A stretch of DNA of 40,722 nucleotides, from assembly GCA_016204125.1 (NCBI GenBank), contig JACQLI010000023.1, positions 1 to 40,722 of the forward strand, written 5' to 3'. The position numbers were made by a program, and so were the translations under genes. Source of the stretch: Candidatus Omnitrophota bacterium. GTDB taxonomy: Bacteria; Omnitrophota; Omnitrophia; Omnitrophales; JACQLI01. The notes under the pieces are model-generated. The model saw nothing but the letters and a program-made list of their open reading frames with translations. It was not told where the DNA came from and searched no databases. Positions 2,872 through 17,877 of the stretch are shown one piece after another (positions within the stretch are counted from its first letter, which is position 1; each line of letters begins with the position of its first letter).

Positions 2872-2875
2872 GTTG

Positions 2876-4102: not shown

Positions 4103-4764
4103 CGAATCTCCGGATAGAGCTTTCCTTTCAAGCCTAAAATATTAAAGCCTGAGTAACATAAAGCAACAAGAAATATGTTAATCAGTTTTTGTCGGACGCA
4201 ACCATTTTGAGTAAACCGCCGCGCCGATGTCACAACTGGGTCTTGAATAATAACGGGACTTGTCAGCCAACGCAGCCGCTGATAAAAATCAATGTCTTCA
4301 AACGACACAGTCTCACTAAAACCATATAATTTTTCGAAAAGCTTTCTGGTAACGAAAAATCCCTGGTCTCCGTAAGAAAAGAAATGGAATCTCGTATAGG
4401 TCTCGTAGAAACGCAGAAGCCACTGGCGATTGTCGAATTTCATCCTAAAGCGGCCTGCGCTGGCGCCTTGACTGACGACTTCTTTGATCTGCTCTAAACC
4501 ATTCTTAGGTAAGCGAGTATCCGCATGCAGAAAAAGAAAAACATCGCCAGTTGCTATTCTAGTCCCTTCATTCATCTGGCGCGCCCTTCCTTTAGCCGAG
4601 GAAATGACGTTTGCCCACTTAGAAGCAAGCGAAACCGTTTTGTCGGTTGATCCTCCATCCACGACAATTATCTCGTCAGGTTGGTGATGAGAACAAAGAT
4701 CTTGTAAAGTATCACAAATGGTCGACTCCTCATTGTAGGTGGGAATAATAACAGATATCTTCAT
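4099..4764 (-). CDS. GT-A fold glycosyltransferase, TIGR04283-like (ArsS-associated transferase 2)
   Basis: ISVIIPTYNEE, EIIVVDGGSTDKT, GRARQMN, LFLHADTRLP, YGDQGFF, FEDIDF and TSARRF. I set the start at the ATG at 4764 (MKISVIIP). The longer ORF-track start would overlap arsS by 110 nt. Confidence 0.8.
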   Translation of the reverse strand: MKISVIIPTYNEESTICDTLQDLCSHHQPDEIIVVDGGSTDKTVSLASKWANVISSAKGRARQMNEGTRIATGDVFLFLHADTRLPKNGLEQIKEVVSQGASAGRFRMKFDNRQWLLRFYETYTRFHFFSYGDQGFFVTRKLFEKLYGFSETVSFEDIDFYQRLRWLTSPVIIQDPVVTSARRFTQNGCVRQKLINIFLVALCYSGFNILGLKGKLYPEIR

Positions 4765-4777
4765 GCCTTTTACCTTT

Positions 4778-5743
4778 TCACTTTTTACTTTCCAATGCTC
4801 CCTGGCAACTAGAACCGCATCCGGCCGTACACCCAAAACAATGCTCCCCGGTTGCGATTCTGAAATCCTCAAGCTGGGCGGGATCAAGGTTAAAAATAGT
4901 TAAAAGCCTGCCATTTTTCATCTGCATACCTTGAGCCTGATTGAAATCGCAATCATAAACTCTCCCGTCCCACGATACGCTCAAGGTGTTTTGGCACATA
5001 AGACCGTCCAAAGTGGCGGGATTGAAACTGTTCATCAAAAGTTGGGTATAAGTTTCGTACTGGTTAAAGGCCTTTAGATATTTTGTGTATCGGGTAATTG
5101 GCATATTGGTAATGGTATAAAGACGATTAAAAACAATCCCCCAATCCTCCTTGAGTCTTTCTTTGTAATCTTCTTCAAGCTGATCCTGAGCTGGAGGCAA
5201 ATGGGGACCAACCGGATTGTAAACTAGACTGAGGATAAGATTACTCCCTTCCTTCCCATAGCCAAGCTCATTTAATTTCAAAAGGGCTTTGATGGATTCA
5301 TCAAATACACCCTTGCCTCTTTGTTTGTCCACGTTTTCTTTTAAGTAGCAAGGTAAAGAAGCGACAATTTCAACCTGGTGATCCGCCAAAAATGTGTCCA
5401 AATCCTCCTGGCCTGGCACAAAGAGCACGGTTAAATTGCAACGGTCAATTACATGAATGCCGCGCTTCTTTGCTTCCGAAACCAAATACCTAAAATTGGG
5501 ATTTAGTTCTGGTGCACCGCCTGTGAGATCAAGTGTTTTGAATTGAGCTCGATCCATAAAATAGACAACGGCTTCTGCCGTTTCATGGTTCATATTTTCC
5601 CGTGTTTTGGTCGGCCCCGCTTCAACATGACAATGCACACAAGCGAGATTACAAAGTTTCCCAAGATTAACCTGAAGGATCTCTATCTTTTGTTTCCGAA
5701 GCCGGGCGCTAACTTCCCCAAGCTTCTCCTCGAAACGATTCAT
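4778..5743 (-). CDS. arsS: arsenosugar biosynthesis radical SAM protein ArsS (radical SAM / Cys-rich C-terminal domain, TIGR04167-like)
   Basis: CNLACVHC radical-SAM CxxxCxxC triad near the N-terminus and a Cys-rich C-terminal tail CFGCTAGCGSSCQGAL. It sits beside arsM and the two context-linked transferase families. Confidence 0.85.
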   Translation of the reverse strand: MNRFEEKLGEVSARLRKQKIEILQVNLGKLCNLACVHCHVEAGPTKTRENMNHETAEAVVYFMDRAQFKTLDLTGGAPELNPNFRYLVSEAKKRGIHVIDRCNLTVLFVPGQEDLDTFLADHQVEIVASLPCYLKENVDKQRGKGVFDESIKALLKLNELGYGKEGSNLILSLVYNPVGPHLPPAQDQLEEDYKERLKEDWGIVFNRLYTITNMPITRYTKYLKAFNQYETYTQLLMNSFNPATLDGLMCQNTLSVSWDGRVYDCDFNQAQGMQMKNGRLLTIFNLDPAQLEDFRIATGEHCFGCTAGCGSSCQGALESKK

Positions 5744-5746
5744 CTT

Positions 5747-6901
5747 TTAAGCTCCTATTCTCGATAATAAAATAAAACTTGCTGCTGAAAAAAATGCTGC
5801 TACCGGCAAAGTCAAAAACCATGCGCCCAAAATGGAAGAAATCACATTCCACCGCGCTTTTCCATTCACAAGACCGATTCCGAAAAGGGCTCCGCAAGAA
5901 ACATGGGTCGTTGATACCGGCATTCCCCACTGGGAAGCAAAAATAACCAAAATGGCAGTGACCAAATTGGCCGCCAGTCCCTGGCCATGATTCATGTAAG
6001 TGATCTTGTGAGAGACCGTTTCGGCCACTTTCCGTGCGCCCAGGATTCCGCCGACCGCCATCGCCAAAGCAACAAATCCGACATTCCAAGTTAAACCAAG
6101 CGCACTTGAAGCCACAAGAAGAGCAACGATCTTTGGCGTATCATTTAGTCCTCTGGCAAAACTAACAGCTCCCGCACTCAGGAAATGGAAGAAATCAAGA
6201 ACCGACTGAGCGTTCACGCCAAACATTTTCCCTTCATAAATCTCAATCGCTTTGGCTTTGCAGCTTTTCTCATTTCCAACAAATACCTCGGGCAACGTAA
6301 TTTCTGTGCTGGTAAACATTTGTCCATTTTCCAAACCCAAATCTGCCAGAGGAATAACTTTTTCACCAACGCAGAGACAACTCTTTCGCGTAATACCGAG
6401 TGTTTTTCTTGCCTTATGCATCACAAAATAAACCGCTGTGGTCAAAACAAGCGCCATAAAGGGACTTGCGATAAGAGGCATGAGAAAGTTTTTTCCCAAG
6501 GTAGTGAATCCAAGTTCCCCTCCAATTGCTATAAATCCGGCTCCGACCAAAGCTCCTGTAAGGCCGTGTGTGGTTGAAATCGGAATCCCAAAGCGTGCGG
6601 CTAAAAGGACGGTTAAACCCGCGCCTAAGGCGACTGCTGCGAGAAACGCCGGATTTCCAATCACAGCATCCGGAACAAGCCCTTTACCCGTAAACGTTCT
6701 CACCAGACGGGTGGCAAGAAAAAGTGCCGCAATTGATCCTGAAAGTGTCGTCGCCGTAGCCCAGCTCAAGGCCTTCCGGTAATCTGTCGTTCCACTTCCA
6801 AACAGCGTGGCTACGCCCTTGAAATTGTCATTCGCACCATTTGCATACGCTACCAGCAATACTGCGATTAATACTGTTAACATCCAAACCATTAGCAGCA
6901 A
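5747..6901 (-). CDS. PiT (PHO4) family inorganic anion transporter
   Basis: Two-fold repeat signatures GANDNFKGVATL and GLNDTPKIVALL in a protein with about 10 TM segments and a central hydrophilic loop. It overlaps the arsM stop by 10 nt and ends 3 nt before the arsS start. Confidence 0.85.
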   Translation of the reverse strand: MLLMVWMLTVLIAVLLVAYANGANDNFKGVATLFGSGTTDYRKALSWATATTLSGSIAALFLATRLVRTFTGKGLVPDAVIGNPAFLAAVALGAGLTVLLAARFGIPISTTHGLTGALVGAGFIAIGGELGFTTLGKNFLMPLIASPFMALVLTTAVYFVMHKARKTLGITRKSCLCVGEKVIPLADLGLENGQMFTSTEITLPEVFVGNEKSCKAKAIEIYEGKMFGVNAQSVLDFFHFLSAGAVSFARGLNDTPKIVALLVASSALGLTWNVGFVALAMAVGGILGARKVAETVSHKITYMNHGQGLAANLVTAILVIFASQWGMPVSTTHVSCGALFGIGLVNGKARWNVISSILGAWFLTLPVAAFFSAASFILLSRIGA

Positions 6902-8106
6902 CCTCCATCCAAACAGACAGATTTCGCTACAGTTGTTTTTCTGTACCGTTTCCCTTTGGTTTCGCGCGGATCACGTTCCGCTGTGCGGTGACAATCAAAA
7001 GGTTTGGCTTTGGCAAGCGGAACATCTTTCGACGGTGGCACCAAAATGAAATCGTTGTGATAGGGCGCCTTGGAATAGATCTGATAGGTCTTATCACAGA
7101 CCGCCGTTCTTGCACCGCGTTTCAGAACATGCCCATCATCATCCACAACCTGTTTCCATGGTCCCTTATAAATCACGGCTTGATTTCTTTCCCAGCAAGG
7201 GCCTTCCTTACCTTTATAGGCCGTAATCGTGACCGAGCGAAATTCGATTCCTTGAACAATGCGCCACGGTCTTTCATCAAACTTTTCAATTTTGAGTCCG
7301 TAAAAACCGGCTTCCTCAAAAGCCCTGACAAATTCTTTCTCCTGAAAGGCTCCCGAGATACATCCACTCCAAAGCTCTGGATCCTTCTGAAGTTTATGAG
7401 GGATGGACTCGTCCGAAACAATATCGGAAATTGCGACACGTCCGCCCTTTCTCAAAACTCGGTGAATTTCCCGGAACAAAGTTTTCTTGTCTTCAGATCG
7501 GACGAGATTCAAGACACAATTGGAAACAATCACATCAATGGATTCATCTTCAATGAGCGGCGATTGCTGCCGTATGTGTTCCACCGCATCCTCGAAATGA
7601 GTCAAATCGTCCACCGAATGAATCGGGTTGCCTTTGAACGTTGCCTCTAAGGCTTCAAGGTCTGTCCTTAAATCTTGAATGCGGCCTCTTCGGAACTCCA
7701 CATTGTGCCAGCCGATTCGGTCACCAACCTCCTTTTGATATTTTCTGGCGAGCGCTAACATGGGAGGGTTGAAATCAATGCCAATTACTTTCCCCTTCGG
7801 ACCCACGATTTGAGAGGCGATGTAACAGATTTTCCCTGCACCGGATCCCAGATCCAAAACCACATCGCCTTCTTTCAGATAGCGCGAAGGATCCCCGCAG
7901 CCATAATCCCTTTCGAGGATTTCCTTAGAGATAACCTTAAGATACTTGGGATCGTAGCTCGTGGGACAGCAAAGAGCTTCTTCTTTGGCCTTTGCCCCCC
8001 GCGCATACCGCTCCCGGACCGCTTGTTCGACGGGCAGCCTTCCGTTCAAGAACAGCTCTCGACCATTAGTGTGATGTTTTCCATTTCCATTATGTGAATA
8101 TTTCAT
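6892..8106 (-). CDS. arsM: arsenite S-adenosylmethionine methyltransferase ArsM with C-terminal extension
   Basis: SAM motif VLDLGSGAGK. The conserved As-binding cysteine contexts YGCGDP, SNCVLNL and WSGCISGA are present, plus LCCP near the N-terminus and GGCC at the C-terminus. I set the start at the ATG at 8106 (MKYSHNG), preceded by GGGAGGTAAGG. Confidence 0.85.
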   Translation of the reverse strand: MKYSHNGNGKHHTNGRELFLNGRLPVEQAVRERYARGAKAKEEALCCPTSYDPKYLKVISKEILERDYGCGDPSRYLKEGDVVLDLGSGAGKICYIASQIVGPKGKVIGIDFNPPMLALARKYQKEVGDRIGWHNVEFRRGRIQDLRTDLEALEATFKGNPIHSVDDLTHFEDAVEHIRQQSPLIEDESIDVIVSNCVLNLVRSEDKKTLFREIHRVLRKGGRVAISDIVSDESIPHKLQKDPELWSGCISGAFQEKEFVRAFEEAGFYGLKIEKFDERPWRIVQGIEFRSVTITAYKGKEGPCWERNQAVIYKGPWKQVVDDDGHVLKRGARTAVCDKTYQIYSKAPYHNDFILVPPSKDVPLAKAKPFDCHRTAERDPRETKGKRYRKTTVAKSVCLDGGCC

Positions 8107-8770
8107 GTTCCTTACCTCCCCTAAGATTTTTCGCCGATCCGACCGATCGGTGCCAGATGACCGAGCGGCCGTCCGCCGCTTGACCGACTGGTACTTCATC
8201 AAGATCATCAAGTTTCTGAAGCAAATAGTAAGACAAATTCTTTTCATTCAACTTGTTTAATGTCGATTCAAACACGTGCTGCGAACTCCACGGAATATTT
8301 TTGAAGATTGAGGGCTGTTCACAATTGGTTCCAATCAGATAGTAACCGCCGTCATAGGCAGGACCGATGACAACGTCATAAAACTCAAGGGCGTCAAATC
8401 CTTTCATGATCAAATCGGCCCTAAGGCCCAAAGTGTCGCTTCCAAGCGCCATTACTTTTTTGAACCCCTTTTCGAAAGCAAACTGAAATGCATTTTGAAG
8501 ACGCACTCCAAGACCAGAACCTCTTTGAACCACATATTCATAAGAGCCAGAAAGCCAGGAACGAAAGGCCTCTTCTTTCTCTGGAGGATCAAAAGCGACG
8601 ATTAGTTTTATGAAATCTTGGGGAAGAGAATTAAGAATTCCAAGGTTTGTCTCGGTAAGCTCACGATAGGCTTGCGCAGCGCGTTGGTCTCCGACGCTTT
8701 TTGCAAGCCGCGTTTTTACCTTGCCCGGCTCCGGATATTTCACGAAATACAAAATCAATTTATCTCCCAT
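8090..8770 (-). CDS. DUF2064 / TIGR04282-like (ArsS-associated transferase 1)
   Basis: KYPEPGKVKTRLA, ALGSDTLGL and GPAYDGGYYLIG, the nucleotidyl/glycosyl-transferase-like hallmarks of DUF2064. Confidence 0.8.
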   Translation of the reverse strand: MGDKLILYFVKYPEPGKVKTRLAKSVGDQRAAQAYRELTETNLGILNSLPQDFIKLIVAFDPPEKEEAFRSWLSGSYEYVVQRGSGLGVRLQNAFQFAFEKGFKKVMALGSDTLGLRADLIMKGFDALEFYDVVIGPAYDGGYYLIGTNCEQPSIFKNIPWSSQHVFESTLNKLNEKNLSYYLLQKLDDLDEVPVGQAADGRSVIWHRSVGSAKNLRGGKEHEIFT

Positions 8771-9479
8771 GAGAACTCACCAGATATTTTTCTCTTAAAT
8801 TCTCCGGATTCTCCTTTAAGAGCTTATAGCCAAAAAGGATCCGAGCGTTTCTAAGGATTTGGCGAAGAACGCCGTGTTCCATGTACCGTCTTGAGGAGAC
8901 AGCTACCGGCTCCTCGATCATAGTGATGCGGCCTTTCTTCCTCATGCAATCCGAAAAAATCAAATCCTCAAGCAAGGGAACTTCCGGAAATCCATTGAGT
9001 GATTCGAAGACTTCCCGCTTCACAAAAATTGCATTCGTTCCCACAAGACAATGCATCAGGCCAAGGTAAATGGTATTTAGGAGAAACTCGTAGACACCAA
9101 GTAGGAAACTCGTAGGCTCGTATTTTTTCCTGAATCCCCCTCCGATGTACCTTTGCTCAATCTTCTCCTGTACAAGTCCAATCGCCCTGTCTGGAAGACG
9201 CACATCTGCATGAGTAAAAAGGAAGACATCTGATTGGGCTTCGAAGGCTCCCGCATTCATCTGAAGTGCGCGATCCGGATACGCTGTCTGAAACAGGCAG
9301 ACACTTGGATACTCACGCCGGATGATTTCATCGGTGCCGTCCCGGGAATTCCCGTCCACAGCAATCACCTCATCCGCTCCGAGCGAAAGGAGGTGTGTCA
9401 GCGTCCGAGCAATAAGGGTTCTTTCGTTCGCAACCGGAACAATAATGGAAACTGTTGGTTTTTTGTCCATAACTCCCAT
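8760..9479 (-). CDS. GT-A fold glycosyltransferase, second TIGR04283-like paralog
   Basis: VSIIVPVANE, EVIAVDGNSRDGT, RALQMN, LFTHADVRLP, LEDLIF and VSSRRY. These are collinear with the 4099..4764 protein. An alternative ATG lies at 9470. Confidence 0.75.
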   Translation of the reverse strand: MGVMDKKPTVSIIVPVANERTLIARTLTHLLSLGADEVIAVDGNSRDGTDEIIRREYPSVCLFQTAYPDRALQMNAGAFEAQSDVFLFTHADVRLPDRAIGLVQEKIEQRYIGGGFRKKYEPTSFLLGVYEFLLNTIYLGLMHCLVGTNAIFVKREVFESLNGFPEVPLLEDLIFSDCMRKKGRITMIEEPVAVSSRRYMEHGVLRQILRNARILFGYKLLKENPENLREKYLVSSHGR

Positions 9480-10819
9480 CCCAAAAAGAAATAAAAGATG
9501 CCATATTCAACCAAGCGAGACAAATCGAAGAAGTGAGGTTTCCCCTGATAGGTGAAATAGAAGTCTAGGTAATAAAGAAAAATCAAGCCCGAAAGCAGGA
9601 TCAGAGAACGCAGAGGTATGAAGAAAAGAAACGGAAAGATCCATGTGAGGTACCACGGATTTCCTGTTGGAGCGAGGAGAAAAAGGAACGTCAAAACCAC
9701 AAGCGAGGCCTGGCAGAAGGAAAGGAGATCCTCTTTTCTCTTAAGCCAATGAAGGACGAGAACAATAGCTGTGGAGAAAATTCCTCCAGCGATTATCCGA
9801 CTCATTGCATGAGTCCACTCATTATTCACCGGTAGCATTGAAACGCTGCCGTGAATCAAGCTAAACAGGCCGTCGTTGACCCTCCAAGAGGTTGCAAAGA
9901 TTCCCAAACCTTCAAAAAGAGAAACTCCCACACCGGAAAAAGGAAGGTAAAAGAGAACGAGTAAAACCAAAAAGAGTCCAACTCCCAGAAAGGTTTGGCG
10001 CCTTTGCTTTGGCAAAGTCCACGCGATAAGAAGCGGGAAAAGAACGACGGGAAACCATTTGGTTAAGGCGGCTAGACTAAGAAGTCCATAGGCGGATACG
10101 AGCCAGTCTCTCGTCAGGCAATAGATCATTCCCGTAAGAAAGAGAATAACAAACACATCAAGATGAAGGCTGTTTGAAAATTCTTTTAATACGAGAGGCG
10201 ACCAGGCATAAAGAAGACTCCATTCTTTGGAAATGTCAAAGCGCTTAAGAATAGCAACTGTCAGAGAGAGAATTCCAAGTTCAGCGACAAGAATCATCGC
10301 TTTCCAACCCCAGAGTTTCCAAGGCGTGATCCACTGAGACAGGGCAAAGAGAATCTGAGCGAAGGGAGGATAAATCGTTTTAATCCCCGGGTGATTGATT
10401 CTTTCAAAGACGGCTCCCATGTCGGGAGAGCTAATCTCTCCCCTTTCTTCTCCTGTCTGAAAAGCTTCCTTGGGCGAAAGCGCGTAGGGATTCTCTCCTC
10501 GGAGAAGCGTCTCGCCATCCCAAAGGTAGCGGTAAGGATCGGTTTCCTGAATCGGGTTGGATGGAAGATACGCAACACGGCAAAGAATGGCGATCACAAA
10601 AATCCACAGAGACAGAAAAGACTTTGAGTGAGTTTCTTTCGAATTCCTCCTTAACCACTCGAAGGTTGCAAAGTAAGCAATGAACGCCAAACCTTCAAGC
10701 ATAAGGAAAGATAGAATCGGCCGCTCCGCATGGCCCGCTCCGAAGACAAAAGAATGGCTAAGCCATGAAATCCCAATTTGCGTCAACAAAATGAACGCGC
10801 CCAAGACGATCAGAGTCAT
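9398..10819 (-). CDS. polytopic membrane protein, GT-C type (DUF2029/GT87-like) glycosyltransferase
   Basis: At least 10 hydrophobic segments. The first periplasmic loop carries ETDPYRYLWDGETLLRGENPY, resembling the acidic-loop motif of polyprenyl-phosphate-sugar dependent GT-C enzymes. Confidence 0.6.
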   Translation of the reverse strand: MTLIVLGAFILLTQIGISWLSHSFVFGAGHAERPILSFLMLEGLAFIAYFATFEWLRRNSKETHSKSFLSLWIFVIAILCRVAYLPSNPIQETDPYRYLWDGETLLRGENPYALSPKEAFQTGEERGEISSPDMGAVFERINHPGIKTIYPPFAQILFALSQWITPWKLWGWKAMILVAELGILSLTVAILKRFDISKEWSLLYAWSPLVLKEFSNSLHLDVFVILFLTGMIYCLTRDWLVSAYGLLSLAALTKWFPVVLFPLLIAWTLPKQRRQTFLGVGLFLVLLVLFYLPFSGVGVSLFEGLGIFATSWRVNDGLFSLIHGSVSMLPVNNEWTHAMSRIIAGGIFSTAIVLVLHWLKRKEDLLSFCQASLVVLTFLFLLAPTGNPWYLTWIFPFLFFIPLRSLILLSGLIFLYYLDFYFTYQGKPHFFDLSRLVEYGIFYFFLGWELWTKNQQFPLLFRLRTKEPLLLGR

Positions 10820-12090
10820 GGTCGAGTCCCCCGTTCACAAATTTGGGCAAACCTTTTCGCCGAAGGACGGATCTTTCGCTCCTGCGTTTCGTAATCCACC
10901 TCAATGAGCCCAAAGCGGGGTGAGAACCCTTCCGCCCATTCATAATTATCAAGCAGGGACCAGTAGAGGTAGCCAAAGACCGGGGCTCCTTCTTGGATCG
11001 CCTTCGCAAGTTCACCTAAATGGCTCTCGATAAATTCAAACCGCTCCTCGTCATGATCCGTGCAGACTCCGTTCTCGGTAACCAGGAGCGGAAGCTTATA
11101 TTGGGAGAATTCCTTGATGAGGCGGTAAAGGCCCTGCGGGTAGATTTCCCAGGAAAGAAAATTACGCCTGCCCACTTGCCGGTGGTGTTTCAAGGTACAG
11201 ATGTCGCCGAAGAGAGCGGGGATCCGAAAGCCCTCGTTATGAACAAAATCACGCGTGTAGTAATTCATGCCGATGAAATCAAGCGTGCGTGCCTTGGGGA
11301 GCTGAATCTTAAAAAGGCCGGGATAAAAAATGCGGCCGCGGATCAAGGCCCTGATGAAAAGATGATTGAACATCAGGTTCCGAATCCAAACGGAAATCCG
11401 GTCCTTCCAGGAACGGTCGGAACAGGGAGTAAAGATCAATACGTGTTTCGCAATCCCCACTTGGGCGGGTGAGCGCTTCAGCCGCTGGTTCACCTCTTTG
11501 ACGGCGTCGTAAGCCAGGACATGACCTTTGAGGAGATGGCCTAATGCTTGCAAGGTTTTTTCGTAGGATCTTTCAGCCGGAGGCCATTCCCCCATGAAGT
11601 AACTTTTAAAAACATAGGCGACAGGTTCATTTAAAGTGATCCAGTACCGGACACCTTCGCCGAGCGTTTCGACCGCTTTTCGGACATATCGTGCAAAAAG
11701 ATTCGGTGTCTTGTGTGAAAGCCATCCGCCCTGCTTGGCAAGCCAAAGAGGCAGGGTAAAATGATGCAGCGTGACGATGGGCTCTAACCGATTCAATTTG
11801 AGGGCCTCAATGACCTCGCGGTAATGCGAAAGCGCCTCCTCGTTGAATTGGCCTTCCTCGGGTTCGATCCGGCTCCATTCCAGGGAGAAGCGGTGGGCAT
11901 TATGGTGAAGAGATTTCGCCAAAGAGAAATCTTCCCGGAACCGATTCCAGTGGTCACAAGCCTTCCCGGAACGCTCTTTGACCTTCCCGTTTTGCTCCCA
12001 ATCCCACCAGTCACTGTTTATGTTATTTCCTTCCACTTGATGAGAGGAAGTCGCCGCCCCCCAAAGGAAATCTTTTGGGAATTCAAACAT
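10816..12090 (-). CDS. glycoside hydrolase family 1 (beta-glucosidase-like)
   Basis: FLWGAATSSHQVEGN, acid/base ITLNEP and nucleophile VTENG, with no signal peptide. I set the start at the ATG at 12090, preceded by GAGGTGAGGAAG. The ORF-track start at 12099 is a GTG. Confidence 0.9.
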   Translation of the reverse strand: MFEFPKDFLWGAATSSHQVEGNNINSDWWDWEQNGKVKERSGKACDHWNRFREDFSLAKSLHHNAHRFSLEWSRIEPEEGQFNEEALSHYREVIEALKLNRLEPIVTLHHFTLPLWLAKQGGWLSHKTPNLFARYVRKAVETLGEGVRYWITLNEPVAYVFKSYFMGEWPPAERSYEKTLQALGHLLKGHVLAYDAVKEVNQRLKRSPAQVGIAKHVLIFTPCSDRSWKDRISVWIRNLMFNHLFIRALIRGRIFYPGLFKIQLPKARTLDFIGMNYYTRDFVHNEGFRIPALFGDICTLKHHRQVGRRNFLSWEIYPQGLYRLIKEFSQYKLPLLVTENGVCTDHDEERFEFIESHLGELAKAIQEGAPVFGYLYWSLLDNYEWAEGFSPRFGLIEVDYETQERKIRPSAKRFAQICERGTRP

Positions 12091-12415
12091 CTTCCTCACC
12101 TCTCAACGCTTCAATAACGTCATCCGCACAATTTTCCCGCATAAGAAAATAGGTTTCGATAGCTTGAATCGCCATTTCAGCGTCATCTCCCTCTACCTCA
12201 ACGACCAGTTTTGATTTCCATGTCGCTCCTAAAAGGAGAAGCCCCAGAATGCTTTTCCCGTCCACCGAAAGCCTCCCCTTGCGGATCCGGATGTCAGAGC
12301 TAAATTGCTTAGCGAATAAGATAAAACGGGTTGCCGTGCGGGCATGAAGACCGAGCTGACACGGCATCGTTACTTCTGTCTTCCTGATCCTCGCGTCCTT
12401 GCTTTCGAGTTCCAT
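12083..12415 (-). CDS. ptsH: HPr-family phosphocarrier protein
   Basis: Active-site His context QLGLHARTA and regulatory Ser context DGKSILGLL. I set the start at the ATG at 12415, directly preceded by AGGAGGTGGGAG. Confidence 0.8.
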   Translation of the reverse strand: MELESKDARIRKTEVTMPCQLGLHARTATRFILFAKQFSSDIRIRKGRLSVDGKSILGLLLLGATWKSKLVVEVEGDDAEMAIQAIETYFLMRENCADDVIEALRGEEDV

Positions 12416-12430
12416 CTCCCACCTCCTCAT

Positions 12431-12601
12431 TTAAAAAGGAATCTTGATCTGCTTGCCGCAATGGGGGCAAACAATGACGCGATATTTTCCGGTCGAATCT
12501 TCAACAACCCTTTCCTCAAACACAGCCTTAGGCACCCGGCTTAATCCTGAACAGCCGCTCATGAGAGTCGCGACGACGAAGATAAGAACCATCCTTTTCA
12601 T
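12431..12601 (-). CDS. small lipoprotein with CPHC motif (56 aa, below the ORF-track cutoff)
   Basis: My translation is MKRMVLIFVVATLMSGCSGLSRVPKAVFEERVVEDSTGKYRVIVCPHCGKQIKIPF. It has a lipobox-like LMSGC. It fills the gap between the oxidoreductase stop (12604) and the HPr ORF exactly. Confidence 0.45.
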   Translation of the reverse strand: MKRMVLIFVVATLMSGCSGLSRVPKAVFEERVVEDSTGKYRVIVCPHCGKQIKIPF

Positions 12602-12603
12602 GG

Positions 12604-14046
12604 TTATGCCAACCGAATCAGCCTCTTCGCTAATTTAGGAAACCAACCGCTAAACAACTTTTCTCTGTAGTATTGATCACAAGAACGTTTCACTGCTTGC
12701 GAAAGTGTCGGATAAACATGGATCGTCTGGGAAATCTGGGTGATCGGAATTCTTGCTTTCATGGCGAGAGCAAATTCGTGGAGGAGTTCTCCCGCATTCG
12801 GACCCAGAAGATGGGCACCCAAGATTTGATTCTTCCTATCGCAAACCAGCTTAATGAGGCCGTGGCCTTCCCCTTCGATCACCGCTCGATCCACATCTTC
12901 AAATTGAAACTTGAATACCTGAATATTCTTTTCTCCGTATTCTTTTTTGGCTTCTGCCTCGGTCATTCCAACGCGGCCTAACTCAGGATCCGTATAAGTG
13001 ACCCACGGCACAACGCGATAATCGGTTTTTCGGTTCATAAAAGGGAAAAGCGCATTCGAGACGACAATCCCAGCTTGATATTCCGCTACATGCGTAAAGG
13101 GATAAAGTCCCGTGACATCACCCGCTGCGAAGATGTGTCTTAAGGAAGTTCGCATCGTAGTGTCCACTTTAATTCCTTTCTTATCGTGCTCAACACCGAT
13201 AAGCTGTAAATTAAGGCCTTCGATATTTGGAGCACGGCCGATGGCAATCATCACTTCATCGACTTCCAAATTCAAATTGCCATGGATCTCGCACTGAGCC
13301 GCTAACAATCTCTTCCCATTCCCATTTCCCTTGACTTCCTTAACTTCCATGCAGGTTACAATATCAATTCCTTCTTTCTTAAGAATCCCCTCTAAGGCAT
13401 CCGCAAGTTCCTTATCCTCACGCGGTAAAATCTGACCCATTTTTTCAATAACCGTAACCTTAGAACCTAACCGTGCGAATACTTGCGCAAACTCCATTCC
13501 AATCGGTCCTGCGCCAAGAATCGCAATCGACTTGGGTAAGTCCTTAAGTTGAAGAGCGGTAATATTGGTAAGGGCACCTGATTCTTTAAGACCAGGTATG
13601 GGTAGGATCACAGGTCTTGATCCCGTTGCTATCAAGAATTTTTTAGCTTGAACTCGTCTTCCCTGTTTTCCGTTCGTCTCGAAGGTATGAGGATCGATGA
13701 ACTTCCCTTCTCCAAAGATCACCTCAACACCCATCTTTCTGAATCTCTCGGGATCGTCATTCTTGCCAATGCGTTCTTGAACTGAACGCATCCGGTTCAT
13801 AACTTTTTTGAAATTTACCTGCGCTCCAGATTTCTCGATCCCGAATTCTTCAGAACGCTTGATGAGGGAAGCGACTTTCGCAGACTGAACGAGGGTTTTT
13901 GTCGGAACGCAGCCCCAGTGAAGGCAGTCTCCCCCGAGAGATTCTTTCTCCACTAGGGCAACCTTTGCTCCAAACTGAGCGGCTCCACTTGCGGTAACAA
14001 GCCCTGCAACACCGCCTCCTATAATCACCAGGTCAAACTGTGTCAT
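12604..14046 (-). CDS. class I FAD-dependent pyridine nucleotide-disulfide oxidoreductase (dihydrolipoyl dehydrogenase / mercuric reductase-like)
   Basis: FAD fold VIIGGGVAGL, redox-active disulfide GGDCLHWGCVPTK, NAD fold ILGAGPIGMEFA and a C-terminal interface motif HVYPTLSQ. Confidence 0.85.
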   Translation of the reverse strand: MTQFDLVIIGGGVAGLVTASGAAQFGAKVALVEKESLGGDCLHWGCVPTKTLVQSAKVASLIKRSEEFGIEKSGAQVNFKKVMNRMRSVQERIGKNDDPERFRKMGVEVIFGEGKFIDPHTFETNGKQGRRVQAKKFLIATGSRPVILPIPGLKESGALTNITALQLKDLPKSIAILGAGPIGMEFAQVFARLGSKVTVIEKMGQILPREDKELADALEGILKKEGIDIVTCMEVKEVKGNGNGKRLLAAQCEIHGNLNLEVDEVMIAIGRAPNIEGLNLQLIGVEHDKKGIKVDTTMRTSLRHIFAAGDVTGLYPFTHVAEYQAGIVVSNALFPFMNRKTDYRVVPWVTYTDPELGRVGMTEAEAKKEYGEKNIQVFKFQFEDVDRAVIEGEGHGLIKLVCDRKNQILGAHLLGPNAGELLHEFALAMKARIPITQISQTIHVYPTLSQAVKRSCDQYYREKLFSGWFPKLAKRLIRLA

Positions 14047-14716
14047 AGGAATTCCCTCCCTTGATTTTTTTGTAAATTGACGGCAGAAAGGAAATGAAAA
14101 TCAAAAGCACGCCGGCCAGAATCAAATTGAGAAAGGCCGCTCGACTGGCTCCTTGAACTCCTTCGAGAAGCGCATCTGCAAAATAGGTGTAGATAAAAGT
14201 CCCGGGTAGCATTCCAATTACTGACGCTAGGAGATAATCGCGATACCTGACGGCTGAGAAACCTGCACCAAAATTGAGACCGTTAAAGGGAACAATTGGA
14301 ATTAGGCGAAGACGGAAAATGGTTTTAAAGCCAGACCTTCCGATTTGCTCATCGAGCTCGGCAAGTTTTCCGCCCTTTAGGAAGCTCTTTACAAAATCAC
14401 GCCCCAAATAACGTGCTGCAAAGAAAGCGAGCGACGCTCCAAGGTTTGAAGCAATCACGTTATAAAGCGTTCCCCATGCCGTACCAAAAACGGCTCCCCC
14501 AGCAAGTGTTAGCAGCGAACCTGGTAAAGCGACAACACATCCAACAGAATAAATCGCAATAAAAATGAACGGTCCCCACCATTGGCCCCGTAGGGATTCA
14601 AGAAAACTGACGATCTGTTCCTTTGTAAAATACTGAGAAAGGGGTGTGTAGCGCACGACGAGACCAACGACAAGAATAACAGCTACTAAAATGATAAATC
14701 TCGTTATTTTGTTCAT
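14033..14716 (-). CDS. TVP38/TMEM64 (DedA superfamily) membrane protein
   Basis: LPGSLLTLAGGAVFG and RLIPIVPFNGLNFGAG motifs in a multi-TM protein. Its stop overlaps the oxidoreductase start by 14 nt. Confidence 0.8.
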   Translation of the reverse strand: MNKITRFIILVAVILVVGLVVRYTPLSQYFTKEQIVSFLESLRGQWWGPFIFIAIYSVGCVVALPGSLLTLAGGAVFGTAWGTLYNVIASNLGASLAFFAARYLGRDFVKSFLKGGKLAELDEQIGRSGFKTIFRLRLIPIVPFNGLNFGAGFSAVRYRDYLLASVIGMLPGTFIYTYFADALLEGVQGASRAAFLNLILAGVLLIFISFLPSIYKKIKGGNSYDTV

Positions 14717-14719
14717 TAC

Positions 14720-15013
14720 TCAGCGCTCCTTAACTTCGAGACCATTTGCCTTGAGAATTTCAAGTGCATGCGCACGACAATCCAAAAAATGGCGCAGCTG
14801 ATCCGGCTTTTCAGCTTCAACCATGTGAATCAAATCCTTTTCGCTTACATCAAGCAATGCGATGGTAGCAAGATATTCCCTATCCTTTTCTGATTTCATC
14901 TGCGTCATGAGTTCCTGCGTGGCAATTCCCTCCACAAATCGCAAACGAACCAATGCCGCAAGCTTCTTAAAAGGAATTCCGCAATAACAGGCCGAAACTT
15001 TGATTTTCTCCAC
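14720..15013 (-). CDS. hypothetical 97-aa protein
   Basis: ORF tightly packed in the array, 3 nt from the downstream gene. The N-terminal SACYCGIPFKKL is reminiscent of the first Cys pair of BFD-like domains, but no second Cys pair is present. Confidence 0.45.
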   Translation of the reverse strand: MEKIKVSACYCGIPFKKLAALVRLRFVEGIATQELMTQMKSEKDREYLATIALLDVSEKDLIHMVEAEKPDQLRHFLDCRAHALEILKANGLEVKER

Positions 15014-15029
15014 TGGAATGCTCCTTACA

Positions 15030-15272
15030 TCAAGTTCTTGAGGCGCTTCCTAAATTCTCTTTCATCAAGCGCGAGAACGCCTCAAGCAAACGTTCTGGAA
15101 TTTCTCCACAGCTGACATCAAATTGAGCATCTGTCTTTTTTCCGAGCTCGGTTATGAAATCGCGGCATGGTTTGCACTTCTTGACGTGAGACTGAAACTG
15201 TCTCTGGGCCTCACTAGAAGGTTTTGTCTCAGCAAATGTATAAATCAAATCTGCGGCTTCGTTACAGGTCAT
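15030..15272 (-). CDS. small soluble ZAS-like (HxxxCxxC) putative anti-sigma / redox-sensor protein
   Basis: HVKKCKPC motif and an upstream Cys (MTCNE) with no TM segment. It is collinear with the anti-sigma factor at 16961..17254, including EIPERL versus EIPPEL. Its start forms an ATGA overlap with the DUF547 gene stop. Confidence 0.55.
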   Translation of the reverse strand: MTCNEAADLIYTFAETKPSSEAQRQFQSHVKKCKPCRDFITELGKKTDAQFDVSCGEIPERLLEAFSRLMKENLGSASRT

Positions 15273-16372
15273 GTCTTGTTCTCCTTTTCATTGAGGCTCC
15301 AGTCATATTCGAGCCATTCGATTTTGGTTTTCTCAGAGATTTTTTCTTTAGCCTCTTTCGGCCCGTGGGTCTTCACAAAACTGAGAATCCCGTCCGCCCT
15401 TTCAAAATCCTTCCGGAACCATTTGAAGATGGGAGAAAGATAAAGTGTATCGGTCGCCTCATCGTAACGGGATTTCTTTGGATCTGACAGGAAATTCCGG
15501 ACCTGATCATTGAGTTGGGCATCGAGCTTACTTCCTTGGTAAGGTTCGCTTCGAATGACCGGACAACCCAAGGAGGCGCAAACAAGCGCAAAGTGGATCC
15601 TTGGCTCCTGAAATTCTTTTCGAAGGATTTGGTGTTCAATATGATTAAGGCTCAACGACTCGTCGAAAACTTTGAGGACTTTGCGGGCCCAAACATCCGG
15701 AATCTGCTGGATGCTATTTTCGGGATAGGCCAGCGCTTTCCATCCGAATCTTTTCTGCAAAGGATAATGATCGATCACTAACTTAACTGCGGCTGCATTG
15801 TAGGTGTTGATCCAGAAGGCAATCTTTTCATCTCGGCTCATTTCCTCATAGTTTTCTTTGGAAAGACTTTCGAGCGATTTCATATATTCATTCAAACCCT
15901 GTCTCTCGCGCTTTAATTTCAAATAGTCTACCCTGTCATTAACGGCATAACCTCGAAGGACTTTCGCATAGGCAGAATAATCAAAAGTAAACTCTGCGCT
16001 CGCAAATGCACTTTCGAAAAACGTCGAAGTACCTAGAAATAAAAAGAGAAAAAGAGGCATGCGATGAAGAAACATCGGACAATGTCCACCGCCCAAGAAC
16101 TGCCAGATCCTTGTATTCAAAACGAAATGACGGATCGCCGGCTTTCCTTGCTCCTCTTCTCTAAAAATGAGGCAGACCAGAAAACGCATCGAGATCTTCA
16201 ACGTTTCCCACAGGGCATAGAAAATGCCGGACAAAATTGCCAGCATTCCACCGAGGACAAGCAGAGGACTCAACCACCAACCAAAGAGGATATTTATCAA
16301 AGGGGACACGGCCAACATAAATCCCACCGTCATGCCTCCGATGCCCATCAATGCAAGTTCGCCGGGTTTCAT
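15269..16372 (-). CDS. DUF547 domain membrane protein
   Basis: WINTYNAAAVKLVI and IHFALVCASLGCP hallmarks of DUF547, with N-terminal hydrophobic helices. Its start forms an ATGA overlap with the upstream stop. Confidence 0.75.
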   Translation of the reverse strand: MKPGELALMGIGGMTVGFMLAVSPLINILFGWWLSPLLVLGGMLAILSGIFYALWETLKISMRFLVCLIFREEEQGKPAIRHFVLNTRIWQFLGGGHCPMFLHRMPLFLFLFLGTSTFFESAFASAEFTFDYSAYAKVLRGYAVNDRVDYLKLKRERQGLNEYMKSLESLSKENYEEMSRDEKIAFWINTYNAAAVKLVIDHYPLQKRFGWKALAYPENSIQQIPDVWARKVLKVFDESLSLNHIEHQILRKEFQEPRIHFALVCASLGCPVIRSEPYQGSKLDAQLNDQVRNFLSDPKKSRYDEATDTLYLSPIFKWFRKDFERADGILSFVKTHGPKEAKEKISEKTKIEWLEYDWSLNEKENKT

Positions 16373-16746
16373 GGTTCTATCCGCACGGTTTTAATACCTT
16401 CGAGCTCTTTGGCACGCGTTCTATGCCATTCCTCCAGGATTTTGAAATCGGCCAATAAAGCTTCTTCTTCAGAAATTAGATCATCGTACTCTTTAATACT
16501 CTCTTTGAGCTGAGGCGATGCAGAGGGTCTTGATCGCTTGGTAAAATTTTCCCTTTCCCTCTTATAGCCAGCAATATCCTCTCTTTGCCACTCGGCCAGC
16601 TCACGGTAGGACTCGGCCTGTTTAAGATGCTGCGCGGCTGTCTCAAGAACTTGGGGCCAACCTTGGTTTGGAAAGGCAAAACTGAGTAGTACCAGAAGAA
16701 TCACGAAGACAACCCCATCCGTTTTCATCTGATTCACCCTCTTCAT
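16369..16746 (-). CDS. secreted/anchored helical protein of unknown function
   Basis: Hydrophobic VVFVILLVLLSFAF followed by a charged helical region. I chose the start MKRV at 16746 because its ATG overlaps the TGA of the small upstream ORF. An alternative ATG lies at 16779. Confidence 0.5.
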   Translation of the reverse strand: MKRVNQMKTDGVVFVILLVLLSFAFPNQGWPQVLETAAQHLKQAESYRELAEWQREDIAGYKRERENFTKRSRPSASPQLKESIKEYDDLISEEEALLADFKILEEWHRTRAKELEGIKTVRIEP

Positions 16747-16862
16747 GGTTTCTTGTCGGAATTTGTCACCGGTCCACATCCGCAGGTGCCTCCGTGTTTA
16801 ACTCGCCAAATGAGCCATGCGGCTACGGCCCCGACAATCAACAAACCAAGTATCAGTTTCAT
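16743..16862 (-). CDS. 39-aa Cys-rich small membrane peptide (resembles FeoB-associated Cys-rich membrane proteins)
   Basis: My translation is MKLILGLLIVGAVAAWLIWRVKHGGTCGCGPVTNSDKKP, one TM helix then GGTCGCG. It lies 26 nt downstream of the repeated ECF-type promoter motif. Its stop overlaps the next start (ATGA). Confidence 0.4.
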   Translation of the reverse strand: MKLILGLLIVGAVAAWLIWRVKHGGTCGCGPVTNSDKKP

Positions 16863-16887
16863 GGTGATATTTCACTCCTTTCGCTAT

Positions 16888-16919
16888 TGATTAAGATGCG
16901 TGTGGAGGCAAAAGGATTC
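16888..16919 (-). promoter_or_regulatory. ECF-type promoter motif, copy 2 (in front of the 21-gene array)
   Basis: The minus strand reads GAATCCTTTTGC-N7-CGCATCTTAATCA. Both blocks and the spacing are identical to the copy upstream of the ECF sigma gene. Confidence 0.5.
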
Positions 16920-16960
16920 AGCGCCTAGGACTACGTTCAGACAGGAGGTGGGATAGTGGG

Positions 16961-17254
16961 TTACGAGGAACCGGCCAGGCGGAGCCACAACCGTTTCCAG
17001 AATCCAGGTGGCTGTAGGCCCGGCTTGGACTTAATAAAGCTACGTAACTTCTGCCTAAGCTCGGGAGGAATCTCTCTCGGATGGAGTTCTTTCGAGAGCT
17101 TGATTGTTTGCCTGTAGGTATTGATGAAGGCAAGACAGCCCGGGCAATCAGCCAAATGCTGTTCGAGCTGTTGCCTCAGCGCAGGCTCAAGCGAGCCGTC
17201 AATGTAGTCATAGAGGAGCTTGCCGACATCACGACACCTAAGCATCGTATTCAT
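16961..17254 (-). CDS. zinc-binding anti-sigma factor (ZAS, zf-HC2), soluble
   Basis: HLADCPGC (HxxxCxxC) plus an upstream Cys (LRCRD). It overlaps the ECF sigma stop by 4 nt. I see no TM segment. Confidence 0.75.
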   Translation of the reverse strand: MNTMLRCRDVGKLLYDYIDGSLEPALRQQLEQHLADCPGCLAFINTYRQTIKLSKELHPREIPPELRQKLRSFIKSKPGLQPPGFWKRLWLRLAGSS

Positions 17255-17877
17255 TTTGGGCTAACCATCTTGAAATTTGGAAAATGCGCTGTCATATAGT
17301 CTGCTAATTCCTTGCGCAAAAAAAGCCGTGCCCGATGGAGCCGGCTCTTCAAGGCCGCAATGGAGATTTCAAGGATCTGGCTCGTCTCCTCTGCTGAAAG
17401 CTCTTCGATGTCCCTTAGGATAAATACACTTCGATAATCCGGTGGGAGAGCCGTAAGGGCCTCATCGATCCGATGAAGAAGTTCCTTACGCATCAGTTCC
17501 TCATCAGGAAGTTTTGACCAGTCGACTACGGGCTCAGCAATCATTCCTTCCTCTGTCATCTTAGGCCCCAACTCCTCTTCAAGCGGTATCTCCTGAAATT
17601 TGGACCGCTTTCTAAGCTTCATGAGTGCGGTGTTCGTAGCAATCCGGTAAATCCAACTCGAAAGCTTGGCGTTTCCCCGAAACCCATCAATTTTCTGAAA
17701 AACGGTCAAGAAGACATCCTGGAGGATTTCCTCCGCATCTTGACGATTGCCTGTCATCCGAAGAGCCAGACCGAAGATCTTGGCCTCATACTGGGTCATC
17801 AGGGCTTCCAAGGCAGCTTCGTCCTTCGCCTTGAGCCGTCTAATAAAATTCAGATCGTCAGATGGGGATTTGGCCAT
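17251..17877 (-). CDS. ECF (sigma-70 group 4) RNA polymerase sigma factor
   Basis: Region 2, DAEEILQDVFLTVFQK...WIYRIATN, and region 4, LSAEETSQILEISIAALKSRLHRAR. Confidence 0.9.
   Translation of the reverse strand: MAKSPSDDLNFIRRLKAKDEAALEALMTQYEAKIFGLALRMTGNRQDAEEILQDVFLTVFQKIDGFRGNAKLSSWIYRIATNTALMKLRKRSKFQEIPLEEELGPKMTEEGMIAEPVVDWSKLPDEELMRKELLHRIDEALTALPPDYRSVFILRDIEELSAEETSQILEISIAALKSRLHRARLFLRKELADYMTAHFPNFKMVSPK

Follow-up and report, generated by a model that had tools for sequence, protein, structure and literature searches.

A VTT-flavoprotein unit and an exported DUF547 protein recur beside ArsS in arsenosugar-type gene clusters of Omnitrophota and other phyla

The DedA superfamily of membrane proteins is nearly universal and partly understood, and the commonest partner of its COG0398 branch is a glutathione-reductase-like flavoprotein. 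Members of the superfamily act as lipid scramblases or undecaprenyl-phosphate flippases, COG0398 proteins being putative phospholipid scramblases, and within COG0398, a subfamily tied to aerobic metabolism, the commonest fusion is to an oxidoreductase of the PF07992+PF02852 type, for which no function was proposed (Todor et al., mBio 2023; PMC10127716). Here we describe such a pair in a stretch of 40,722 nucleotides (nt) from Candidatus Omnitrophota bacterium (contig JACQLI010000023.1, assembly GCA_016204125.1), hereafter the window. In its module region (12431-16862, minus strand), a VTT/TVP38 membrane protein, a flavoprotein (the reductase) and a DUF547 protein are encoded in the same gene array as the arsenic enzymes ArsM and ArsS. 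To our knowledge, DUF547, a domain of bacteria, plants and animals, has neither a known function nor a known fold. The VTT protein and the reductase form a conserved and often fused unit, the DUF547 protein is exported and carries a CX4C motif, and both recur beside ArsS. Literature searches on DUF547, DUF3641, ArsS, TVP38 and DedA with arsenic retrieved no paper that ties the VTT-reductase pair or DUF547 to ArsS; the families and the fusion are known, while the association with ArsS across phyla and a Tyr-for-His signature in the reductase are new in that they are absent from the retrieved literature.

Compared with the COG0398 fusions (PMC10127716), the window pair has the same two domains on two overlapping genes and, in contrast to their aerobic link, it belongs to anaerobe-type lineages (Omnitrophota, Deltaproteobacteria) and lies inside an ArsM/ArsS cluster. 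With mercuric reductase (MerA; structures 5x1y and 1zk7) the flavoprotein shares the class I FAD fold, the CX4C motif and a Tyr at the position of the catalytic His of dihydrolipoyl dehydrogenase (LipDH) and glutathione reductase, but MerA has a C-terminal Cys-Cys pair and an NADPH-type site, whereas the flavoprotein has an additional amphipathic tail and a VTT partner. With LipDH, the E3 component of 2-oxoacid dehydrogenase complexes (1ebd), it shares the fold, the CX4C motif and the Glu of an NADH-type site; unlike E3, it lacks the His-Glu dyad and has a membrane partner. Like the DsbD/CcdA systems, the region combines genes for a cytoplasmic reductant, for a membrane protein and for exported Cys proteins, but VTT belongs to a different fold family. 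Finally, all four families of the arsenosugar set (ArsM, ArsS, TIGR04282 and TIGR04283) are encoded downstream on the same strand, with scores above or near their cutoffs.

A membrane protein coupled to a MerA-like flavoprotein

The three proteins on which this analysis centres are the following.

12604..14046, minus strand: flavoprotein, an NADH-type FAD class I pyridine-nucleotide-disulfide oxidoreductase (Pyr_redox_2 E=4e-70, Pyr_redox_dim E=4.5e-35)
14033..14716, minus strand: VTT/TVP38 membrane protein of the DedA superfamily (PF09335 E=4.7e-29, 101.8 bits against a cutoff of 33.9)
15269..16372, minus strand: DUF547 protein (PF04784 E=1.2e-28), an N-terminal transmembrane (TM) region followed by an exported domain, with CASLGCP

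The module region forms the upstream part of an array of about 22 closely packed, co-directional minus-strand genes (about 1885-17877), joined by 4-nt ATGA overlaps or by gaps of 0-16 nt. From its head, the array runs through a pair of genes for an extracytoplasmic-function (ECF) sigma factor and a ZAS protein, the region of Cys proteins, VTT protein and flavoprotein, and then HPr-like, GH1, GT-C-like, GT2, DUF2064, ArsM, PHO4, ArsS, GT2, fatty-acid hydroxylase, DsrE-like and transglutaminase-core genes. Matches to the NCBIfam models for ArsS, TIGR04282 and TIGR04283 identify the module region as the upstream part of an arsenosugar-type cluster. A preliminary description of this region, made from the sequence alone, had reported a set of open reading frames (ORFs) with Cys motifs, all of which are present on the minus strand at the positions reported. 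Its view that each of these proteins carries paired or clustered Cys holds for the motifs that it listed, but the VTT protein has one Cys and an ORF of 136 amino acids (aa), which it did not list, has none. It had also placed the module next to an arsenic pathway; the arsenic genes are indeed near, but the region is part of the same array and not a separate unit.

The redox pair of the flavoprotein lies in the stretch GGDCLHWGCVPTK, and its CX4C motif is invariant across the homologs compared. The protein scores marginally above the cutoff of TIGR01350, the model for dihydrolipoyl dehydrogenase (423.8 bits, cutoff 408.8), below that of TIGR02053, the model for MerA (402 bits, cutoff 454.45), and highest, yet below the model's own cutoff, against the generic FAD-oxidoreductase subfamily NF004991 (503.9 bits, cutoff 620). 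Its closest solved structure is MerA 5x1y (E=8e-84). A HMMER alignment sets IHVYPTLSQ of the flavoprotein opposite ..PYLTMAE of MerA (5x1y) and HAHPTLGE of LipDH (1ebd), with Tyr at the position of the catalytic His, as in MerA, and Gln at the position of the Glu. The resulting H-x-Y-P-T instead of H-x-H-P-T is found in all ArsS-linked copies save that of locus L068, which reads F-P-Y-P-T (loci are numbered with the prefix L). The Tyr occupies the His position in 119 of the 120 closest database homologs and in every ArsS-linked copy from other phyla; such proteins are called Tyr-type below. The change from Glu to Gln is confined to the clade of the window. At the second active-site Tyr position of MerA, this clade has Ala and most ArsS-linked copies of other phyla have Tyr; we take the two MerA positions compared to be the equivalents of Tn501 Y194 (Ala in the window's clade) and Y535 (Tyr in all copies).

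The residue at the NAD-ribose position is acidic (Glu, as in LipDH; MerA has Arg), which indicates a cofactor site of the NADH type. The C-terminal vicinal Cys pair of MerA is absent from the flavoprotein; in its tail there is one Cys at the most (KRSC), which 57 of 119 homologs share and which other phyla lack. A Pfam scan of the flavoprotein found no N-terminal HMA domain (NmerA), which is typical of many, not all, MerA proteins. All members of the group end in a conserved basic and aromatic tail of about 25 residues; the hydrophobic moment reaches 0.60 over the last 18 residues, whereas the protein averages 0.23 (standard deviation 0.12), and the net charge over the last 24 residues is +4, values consistent with a predicted amphipathic helix resting on the membrane surface. 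No TM segment is predicted in the flavoprotein, and together with its use of NADH and FAD this places it in the cytoplasm.

The coupling of the two genes is close. As the preliminary description had noted, they overlap by 14 nt (14033-14046), and it had also mentioned fused versions, which are borne out by single ORFs with an N-terminal VTT and a C-terminal reductase part in seven loci (L016, L024, L048, L060, L072, L073 and L082) as well as by the published survey (PMC10127716). Fused ORFs that adjoin ArsS in other phyla measure about 720-775 codons from stop to stop. One of the fusions, that of L072, comes from the isolate Methylotetracoccus oryzae C50C1, where it is divergent from arsS-arsM. 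In L004 and L087-L089, VTT and reductase are encoded as adjacent pairs.

In the DUF547 protein, Cys145, Cys150 and Pro151 (C-A-S-x-G-C-P, CX4C) are invariant in 38 homologs and in all ArsS-linked copies. This motif and the CX4C of the flavoprotein are the only Cys motifs of the module that are conserved across phyla. The DUF547 domain sits after TM segments or after a signal peptide, as predicted in homologs, and is therefore exported. Some homologs, including that of the sister cluster L001, have an N-terminal thioredoxin-like PF13192 domain ahead of the membrane segment. An AlphaFold2 model of the DUF547 domain (15272-16012) reached a pLDDT of 91.9 and a pTM of 0.90, and a Foldseek search of this model against the PDB gave no structural neighbour (best E=3.4), so that no function can be transferred from the fold. 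Judging from this model, DUF547 appears to represent a fold without a solved representative.

Placement beside ArsS across phyla

An exact look-up of the window flavoprotein returned no record, and the gene contexts described here are drawn from homologs; the best homologs of the window proteins are found in metagenome-assembled genomes of Candidatus Omnitrophica. Association with ArsS was approached from both sides. Reductase-centred look-ups covered the neighbourhoods of flavoprotein homologs in genomes together with a metagenome scan, and an ArsS-centred scan with one genome per species covered 80 loci from many phyla, in which features within 10 kb of ArsS were counted. Gene orders around reductase homologs, with identity to the window reductase in brackets, were as follows.

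L001 (85%): MerR, MerT/HMA, CopZ-like, DUF547, 80 aa, 103 aa, VTT, reductase, GH1, DUF2064, ArsM, PHO4, ArsS
L003 (78%): DUF547, HPr, CDGSH, VTT, reductase, GT-C, GT2, ArsM, PHO4, ArsS
L004/5, a deltaproteobacterium (70%): PHO4, ArsM, ArsS, reductase, VTT
L086 (61%): PHO4, reductase, ArsS::ArsM fusion

The metagenome scan added the full cluster in L092, L095, L103 and L113 and the arrangement PHO4-ArsM-ArsS-reductase in L098, L100 and L111. ArsS, ArsM or PHO4 adjoins the reductase in L001, L003, L004/5, L086, L092, L095, L098, L100, L103 and L113. Apart from other Omnitrophota, the flavoprotein with VTT, often together with DUF547, was found beside ArsS, ArsM and PHO4 in Deltaproteobacteria, Planctomycetota, Binatia and Alpha-, Beta- and Gammaproteobacteria.

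The ArsS-centred counts are given for all 80 loci and, after the semicolon, for the 39 loci that extend 8 kb or more to each side.

Any reductase homolog near ArsS: 17 of 80; 10 of 39
Tyr-type reductase: 15 of 80; 9 of 39
VTT: 13 of 80; 8 of 39
DUF547: 8 of 80; 6 of 39
TIGR04282-like (DUF2064): 27 of 80; 17 of 39
TIGR04283-like (GT2): 30 of 80; 19 of 39
ArsM: 26 of 80; 16 of 39

VTT accompanies 12 of the 15 Tyr-type reductase loci in the larger set and 8 of the 9 in the smaller one, and for nine of the 15 Tyr-type reductase genes one end lies no more than 1 kb from ArsS. Given an assumed background of 2.5%, 16 or more hits in 80 loci would arise with a probability of about 1e-10. The sole ordinary His-Glu paralog (L037) lies 6 kb from ArsS on the opposite strand, as chance would predict. 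Reductase and VTT also stand directly beside ArsS in loci without lipid and glycosyl genes, for example L012, L019, L025, L063 and L082. The link of the VTT-reductase module to arsenic genes is thus well supported. It had been proposed in the preliminary description, and it holds well beyond the window, with the module beside ArsS in many phyla and with DUF547, TVP38 and the reductase at 8, 13 and 17 of the 80 ArsS loci, respectively.

Two of the loci contain fusions of a radical-SAM enzyme and a methyltransferase. L086 encodes, at 11447-13453 and directly after PHO4 and the reductase, a single protein of 668 aa that combines Radical_SAM and DUF3641 (ArsS) with an ArsM-type methyltransferase. 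In L089, a radical S-adenosylmethionine (SAM)-methyltransferase fusion of 619 aa lies about 6 kb from the reductase-VTT pair.

Possible roles of the VTT-reductase pair

With confidence that we would call about even, we read the VTT-reductase pair as the core membrane unit of an organoarsenical cluster of the ArsM/ArsS type, directed to an arsenosugar or arsenolipid, which would maintain arsenic, or the thiols that bind it, in a reduced state for use by ArsS and ArsM; the substrate, the transport direction and the cellular role are those that we infer from sequence and gene context. The loss of the disulfide-exchange His, with a MerA-like Tyr instead, points to a substrate that is small and thiophilic and binds at the CX4C pair itself, rather than to a disulfide, and in the context of ArsS arsenic would be the most economical candidate. 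No ArsC-type reductase is present among the called genes of L001, L003, L004 and L086. In the mechanism that we propose, VTT would anchor the reductase to the membrane, helped by the cationic amphipathic helix at the C-terminus of the reductase itself, NADH would reduce the FAD, and the FAD would reduce the CX4C dithiol. The dithiol might then reduce As(V), either arsenate entering via the PHO4 permease or methylated As(V), or else an arsenic-thiol adduct, to the trivalent form used by ArsM and ArsS. VTT could move the substrate, or a product that is lipophilic or linked to a lipid, to the other side of the membrane or within it, and the exported DUF547 protein with its invariant CX4C may be a second recurrent accessory of ArsS, acting on the outer membrane face.

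A narrower version of this proposal, which we consider less likely than not by a wide margin, is that the Tyr-type VTT-coupled flavoprotein would be a so far unrecognised NADH-dependent reductase of pentavalent arsenicals (arsenate and especially methyl-As(V), such as dimethylated DMAs(V)) that feeds trivalent substrate to ArsS at the membrane. No enzyme for methyl-As(V) reduction is known to have been identified. Were this version true, it would provide the first defined biochemical role for the DedA(COG0398)-oxidoreductase fusion and, by extension, for DUF547. More generally, arsenosugar and arsenolipid pathways may include redox and membrane steps beyond the two-enzyme ArsM-ArsS scheme, in anaerobic lineages too, and the recurrent placement beside ArsS offers an experimental handle on both the VTT-reductase pair and DUF547.

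Several observations weigh against a unit dedicated to arsenic reduction. The substrate of the reductase is purely a deduction from sequence, and in the clade of the window Ala takes the place of the first MerA-type Tyr and Gln that of the Glu. About three quarters of the ArsS loci have no module within 10 kb. Moreover, ArsM is missing within 10 kb in 12 of the 17 loci that carry a reductase homolog; the reductase tracks ArsS, and not ArsM or PHO4, so that a role directed to ArsS fits at least as well as arsenate reduction. Reductase-VTT pairs of 64-67% identity have no ArsS within 10 kb in L087 and L088, L102 gave no ArsS match either, and the unlinked L088 pair belongs to the same genome (GCA_040960315.1) as the ArsS-linked L003 copy. 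In L087-L089, where the reductase lies at 10001-11446, the shared neighbours are SAM_HAT (the SAM hydroxide adenosyltransferase family), D-Tyr-tRNA deacylase, PfkB, NifU and YHS, and none of the three loci has a DUF3641 protein, that is, a recognisable ArsS. Such pairs away from ArsS imply that the function of the module is wider than arsenic chemistry. In addition, L110 (2929-3639) and L113 (2-475), near-identical contigs from different metagenomes, carry the same in-frame deletion of 1,428 nt (window positions 12970-14397) and are about 94% identical in the remaining reductase part. At an LGR microhomology, it joins the first 107 or so residues of VTT to about residues 360-480 of the reductase; VTT loses its C-terminal half and the reductase its FAD, NAD and CX4C parts, yet the remaining cluster is intact, which makes the module dispensable in that lineage. 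The VTT-reductase pair is hence an accessory with a function beyond arsenic, dispensable in at least one lineage.

That the reductase tracks ArsS would also be expected of a dedicated protein-thiol reductase for the Cys-rich C-terminus of ArsS (a selenenyl-sulfide in the selenocysteine forms) or for the Cys of ArsM, with VTT serving only as an anchor. Most often the reductase gene directly adjoins that of ArsS, also at loci without ArsM and PHO4, and since it follows ArsS more closely than it follows ArsM or PHO4, a role in ArsS reactivation stays in play. ArsS ends in the invariant motif HC-x-x-C-TAG-x-GS-x-C (HCFGCTAGCGSSCQG in the window), some members of its family are selenoproteins, and the ArsM encoded here has 14 Cys. 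We nevertheless consider this explanation unlikely. Compared with characterised disulfide reductases, the protein has lost the His of the His-Glu dyad (and, in the window's clade alone, the Glu as well), there is no additional C-terminal redox centre of the kind found in large thioredoxin reductases, with a tail Cys in about half of the homologs, and reductase-VTT pairs occur without ArsS nearby. The C-terminal motif of ArsS is the same in reductase-linked and unlinked loci and thus does not separate the rival explanations. Those same unlinked pairs, together with the amphipathic tail of the reductase, keep alive a general role in membrane lipids, in which VTT would be a scramblase or flippase for an arsenosugar lipid or a polyprenyl-phosphate sugar and the redox function of the flavoprotein would be unrelated to arsenic. 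Such a role would agree with the activities described for the DedA superfamily (PMC10127716) and with the membrane enzymes of the cluster (GT2, GT-C-like and fatty-acid hydroxylase). It is decidedly unlikely in our estimation, since it leaves unexplained both the strict conservation of a MerA-like CX4C/Tyr active site and the presence of the pair beside ArsS in loci without lipid or glycosyl genes (L012, L019, L025, L063 and L082).

The preliminary description had interpreted the module as a transmembrane thiol-disulfide relay leading from the flavoprotein through TVP38 to the exported DUF547 protein, the CPHC lipoprotein and the CGCG peptide. The topology would suit such a relay, given a cytoplasmic reductase, a membrane-embedded VTT and an exported DUF547 protein and lipoprotein with Cys pairs, and so would the thioredoxin-like PF13192 domain of some DUF547 homologs. 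Relays of the DsbD/CcdA type, however, need a conserved Cys pair within the membrane. In 17 VTT sequences the single Cys of VTT is not conserved, with P, T, V or A in its place beyond close relatives, and without a conserved Cys a DsbD-like relay through VTT is untenable and was rejected. Furthermore, the peptide, the lipoprotein and a 97-aa Cys protein are clade-specific and missing from the same cluster in other lineages, and the thioredoxin-like domain of those DUF547 homologs has a single thiol (CPSR/CPAR) and lies across the membrane-spanning segment from DUF547; this interpretation is not supported, and we regard it as very unlikely. Similarly little credit can be given to a reductase of mercury or another metal ion working in the manner of MerT and MerA, with the arsenic neighbours as an incidental co-localisation of metal-resistance genes. 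MerA 5x1y is the nearest structure, MerA-type Tyr residues are present, and MerR and MerT-HMA precede the module in L001, but the recurrent partner across phyla is ArsS and not mer genes, and a true MerA was rejected on the sub-cutoff TIGR02053 score (402 against 454), the lack of a C-terminal Cys pair and of NmerA/HMA, and the NADH-type site. Depending on the source, databases name the flavoprotein homologs mercuric reductase or dihydrolipoyl dehydrogenase, and the latter name finds some backing in the TIGR01350 score just over the cutoff. That the protein is an ordinary dihydrolipoyl dehydrogenase, the E3 of a 2-oxoacid dehydrogenase or glycine-cleavage complex, is nonetheless an idea that we practically discard. 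This was also the outcome that the preliminary description had named as fatal to its proposal, and at the sequence level the His-Glu pair is replaced by Tyr...Gln. Genes for E1, E2 or a lipoyl protein are found neither in the 40.7-kb window nor in the related loci L001-L005 and L086-L089, and the conserved partner is VTT and the conserved context ArsS; an ordinary E3 was rejected on the two replaced residues and on the lack of E1, E2 and lipoyl-protein genes in the window. The current naming of Tyr-type VTT-coupled proteins after these two enzymes would then amount to a systematic annotation error.

Other genes of the array and its surroundings

The remaining genes at the head of the array and within the module region encode small Cys proteins and a regulatory pair.

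17251..17877, minus strand: ECF sigma factor at the head of the array (Sigma70_r2 and r4_2; TIGR02937 105.8 bits, cutoff 42.9; 88% in L110)
16961..17254, minus strand: ZAS-type anti-sigma factor of 97 aa with HLADCPGC (zf-HC2 E=5.7e-12; RsrA match below cutoff; 85% in L110)
16743..16862, minus strand: membrane peptide of 39 aa, MKLILGLLIVGAVAAWLIWRVKHGGTCGCGPVTNSDKKP, with HGGTCGCGP and a C-terminal CGCG (AGGAG ribosome-binding site; one predicted TM segment)
16369..16779, minus strand: membrane-anchored coiled-coil protein of 136 aa without Cys (one TM segment; no family match; absent from L110)
15030..15272, minus strand: soluble ZAS-like zinc-finger protein of 80 aa with HVKKCKPC (zf-HC2 23.4 bits, cutoff 22.2; overlaps the DUF547 gene by 4 nt)
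14720..15013, minus strand: protein of 97 aa with ACYCG (no family match; C-[YF]-C conserved in relatives)
12431..12601, minus strand: lipoprotein of 56 aa with lipobox LMSGC and a C-terminal CPHC (weak LPAM_1 match)

The anti-sigma gene overlaps the sigma gene by 4 nt. ZAS domains are thiol-reactive sensors, and an H-x3-C-x2-C zinc motif with an upstream Cys is common to the 97-aa ZAS protein (16961-17254) and the 80-aa protein; the former adjoins the ECF sigma gene, whereas the latter is coupled to DUF547 instead. Residues C3, H29-x3-C33-x2-C36 and C55 of the 80-aa protein are all five kept in L001, L094, L106 and L110. For the 97-aa CYC protein we found 14 homologs, all unannotated and all from Omnitrophica. 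The 39-aa peptide gave only a weak FeoB_associated-like match (E=0.17), and its homolog occurs only in L110 (77%, with CGCG kept). The C-terminal 25 residues of the lipoprotein are nearly invariant in L108, L110 and L113, and the protein is absent from the L001 and L003 clusters. Lenient Pfam and NCBIfam scans of the small ORFs yielded only sub-threshold zinc-ribbon and FeoB_associated-like hints.

Peptide and lipoprotein are restricted to relatives with a flavoprotein that is about 90-94% identical, homologs of the sigma/ZAS pair to very close relatives, and the Cys motifs of the ZAS-like 80-aa and the 97-aa proteins are conserved within Omnitrophota only. The motifs of the 39-aa peptide, the lipoprotein and the sigma/ZAS pair are kept in close relatives, which indicates that these are real genes. 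None of the small Cys proteins nor the sigma/ZAS pair is present in the equivalent ArsS clusters of other phyla. The sigma/ZAS pair, the 80-aa, 97-aa and 39-aa proteins and the CPHC lipoprotein are lineage-specific additions, probably with regulatory or thiol-sensing roles, and not steps of an electron relay. In L001 (5940-7623), the closest complete relative, the place of the ECF sigma/ZAS head is taken by MerR, a 57-aa ORF, a MerT-HMA fusion and a CopZ-type zinc-finger protein. Genes of the MerR, MerT-HMA and CopZ kinds at the head of this sister cluster hint that a thiophilic metal or metalloid is handled.

Downstream of the module, the following genes complete the array.

12083..12430, minus strand: HPr-like phosphocarrier (PTS-HPr E=9.4e-21; GLHAR active-site His kept in L003, L090, L095, L103, L108 and L113)
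10816..12099, minus strand: GH1 glycoside hydrolase (PF00232 E=1e-88; directly after the reductase in L001, L092 and L095)
9398..10819, minus strand: polytopic membrane protein, GT-C/MptA_B-like (about 10 predicted TM segments; no Pfam match in the window copy)
8760..9479, minus strand: GT2 glycosyltransferase, TIGR04283-like (171 bits, just under the cutoff of 182)
8090..8770, minus strand: TIGR04282 arsenosugar-biosynthesis transferase (DUF2064; 187 bits, cutoff 134)
6892..8247, minus strand: ArsM-type As(III) SAM methyltransferase (NF040538 390 bits, cutoff 500; PRK11873 200 bits; both below cutoff)
5747..6901, minus strand: PHO4/PiT-family anion permease (PF01384 E=1e-61; adjoins the reductase or ArsS in L004, L064 and L086)
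4778..5743, minus strand: ArsS arsenosugar radical-SAM enzyme, Cys form (TIGR04167 451.3 bits, cutoff 300; PF12345 (DUF3641) E=2.6e-54)
4099..4887, minus strand: TIGR04283 arsenosugar-biosynthesis glycosyltransferase (GT2; 224 bits, cutoff 182)
3323..4102, minus strand: membrane enzyme of the fatty-acid hydroxylase family (PF04116 E=1e-26; recurs in 11 of the 80 ArsS loci)
2876..3319, minus strand: DsrE-like protein (PF02635 E=3e-9; conserved in L003, L004, L092, L095 and L100)
1885..2949, minus strand: transglutaminase-core protein, the conserved tail of the cluster (PF01841 E=1.6e-21; homologs in L001, L003, L007 and L092)

Against the AsSugarArsM model, the ArsM protein scores 130, below the cutoff of 400. 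The GT-C-like protein has a 50% homolog in L003 with a weak match to PF26314 (MptA_B_family), and no further component of the phosphotransferase system was seen in the window besides the HPr-like protein. NCBIfam holds no arsenosugar-named model for the VTT-reductase pair, DUF547, or the HPr-like, GH1, GT-C-like, DsrE-like and transglutaminase-core proteins; DUF547 and several others gave no NCBIfam match, and the reductase matched generic models only.

Longest-ORF starts are probably over-extended in several genes, namely ArsM (158 nt into DUF2064), the second GT2 (110 nt into ArsS), the transglutaminase-core ORF (74 nt into the DsrE-like gene) and the 136-aa ORF (37 nt into the 39-aa peptide), and homolog alignments start 30-75 residues inside these ORFs (from residue 48-74 on in ArsM). 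The 136-aa ORF probably starts at an ATG at 16746, overlapping the stop of the 39-aa peptide (ATGA). A scan of the window for promoters and terminators gave the same counts as shuffled sequence, so operon boundaries cannot be set by such a scan; a sigma-70-like match at 17913-17885 comes from this same scan, with counts no different from shuffled sequence. An Rfam scan of the window found no RNA family.

Beyond the end of the array at 1885 there is a gap of 328 nt, followed by three more co-directional ORFs that reach down to position 69. Among them are the following two.

1155-1556: protein of 133 aa (no family match; 61-73% identical in L001, L003 and L007)
524-1150: a second class I SAM methyltransferase

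On the other side, upstream of the sigma gene, a co-directional block of lipid metabolism (17999-28174) encodes a lysophospholipase-like hydrolase, an acyl-CoA synthetase, an enoyl-CoA hydratase, a 3-hydroxyacyl-CoA dehydrogenase, a thiolase, a cNMP-binding patatin phospholipase and a glycerol-kinase-like FGGY kinase. This block might be tied to an arsenolipid product. At 33067-34392, about 21 kb from the GH1 gene of the cluster, the window has a second gene for a GH1 glycoside hydrolase.

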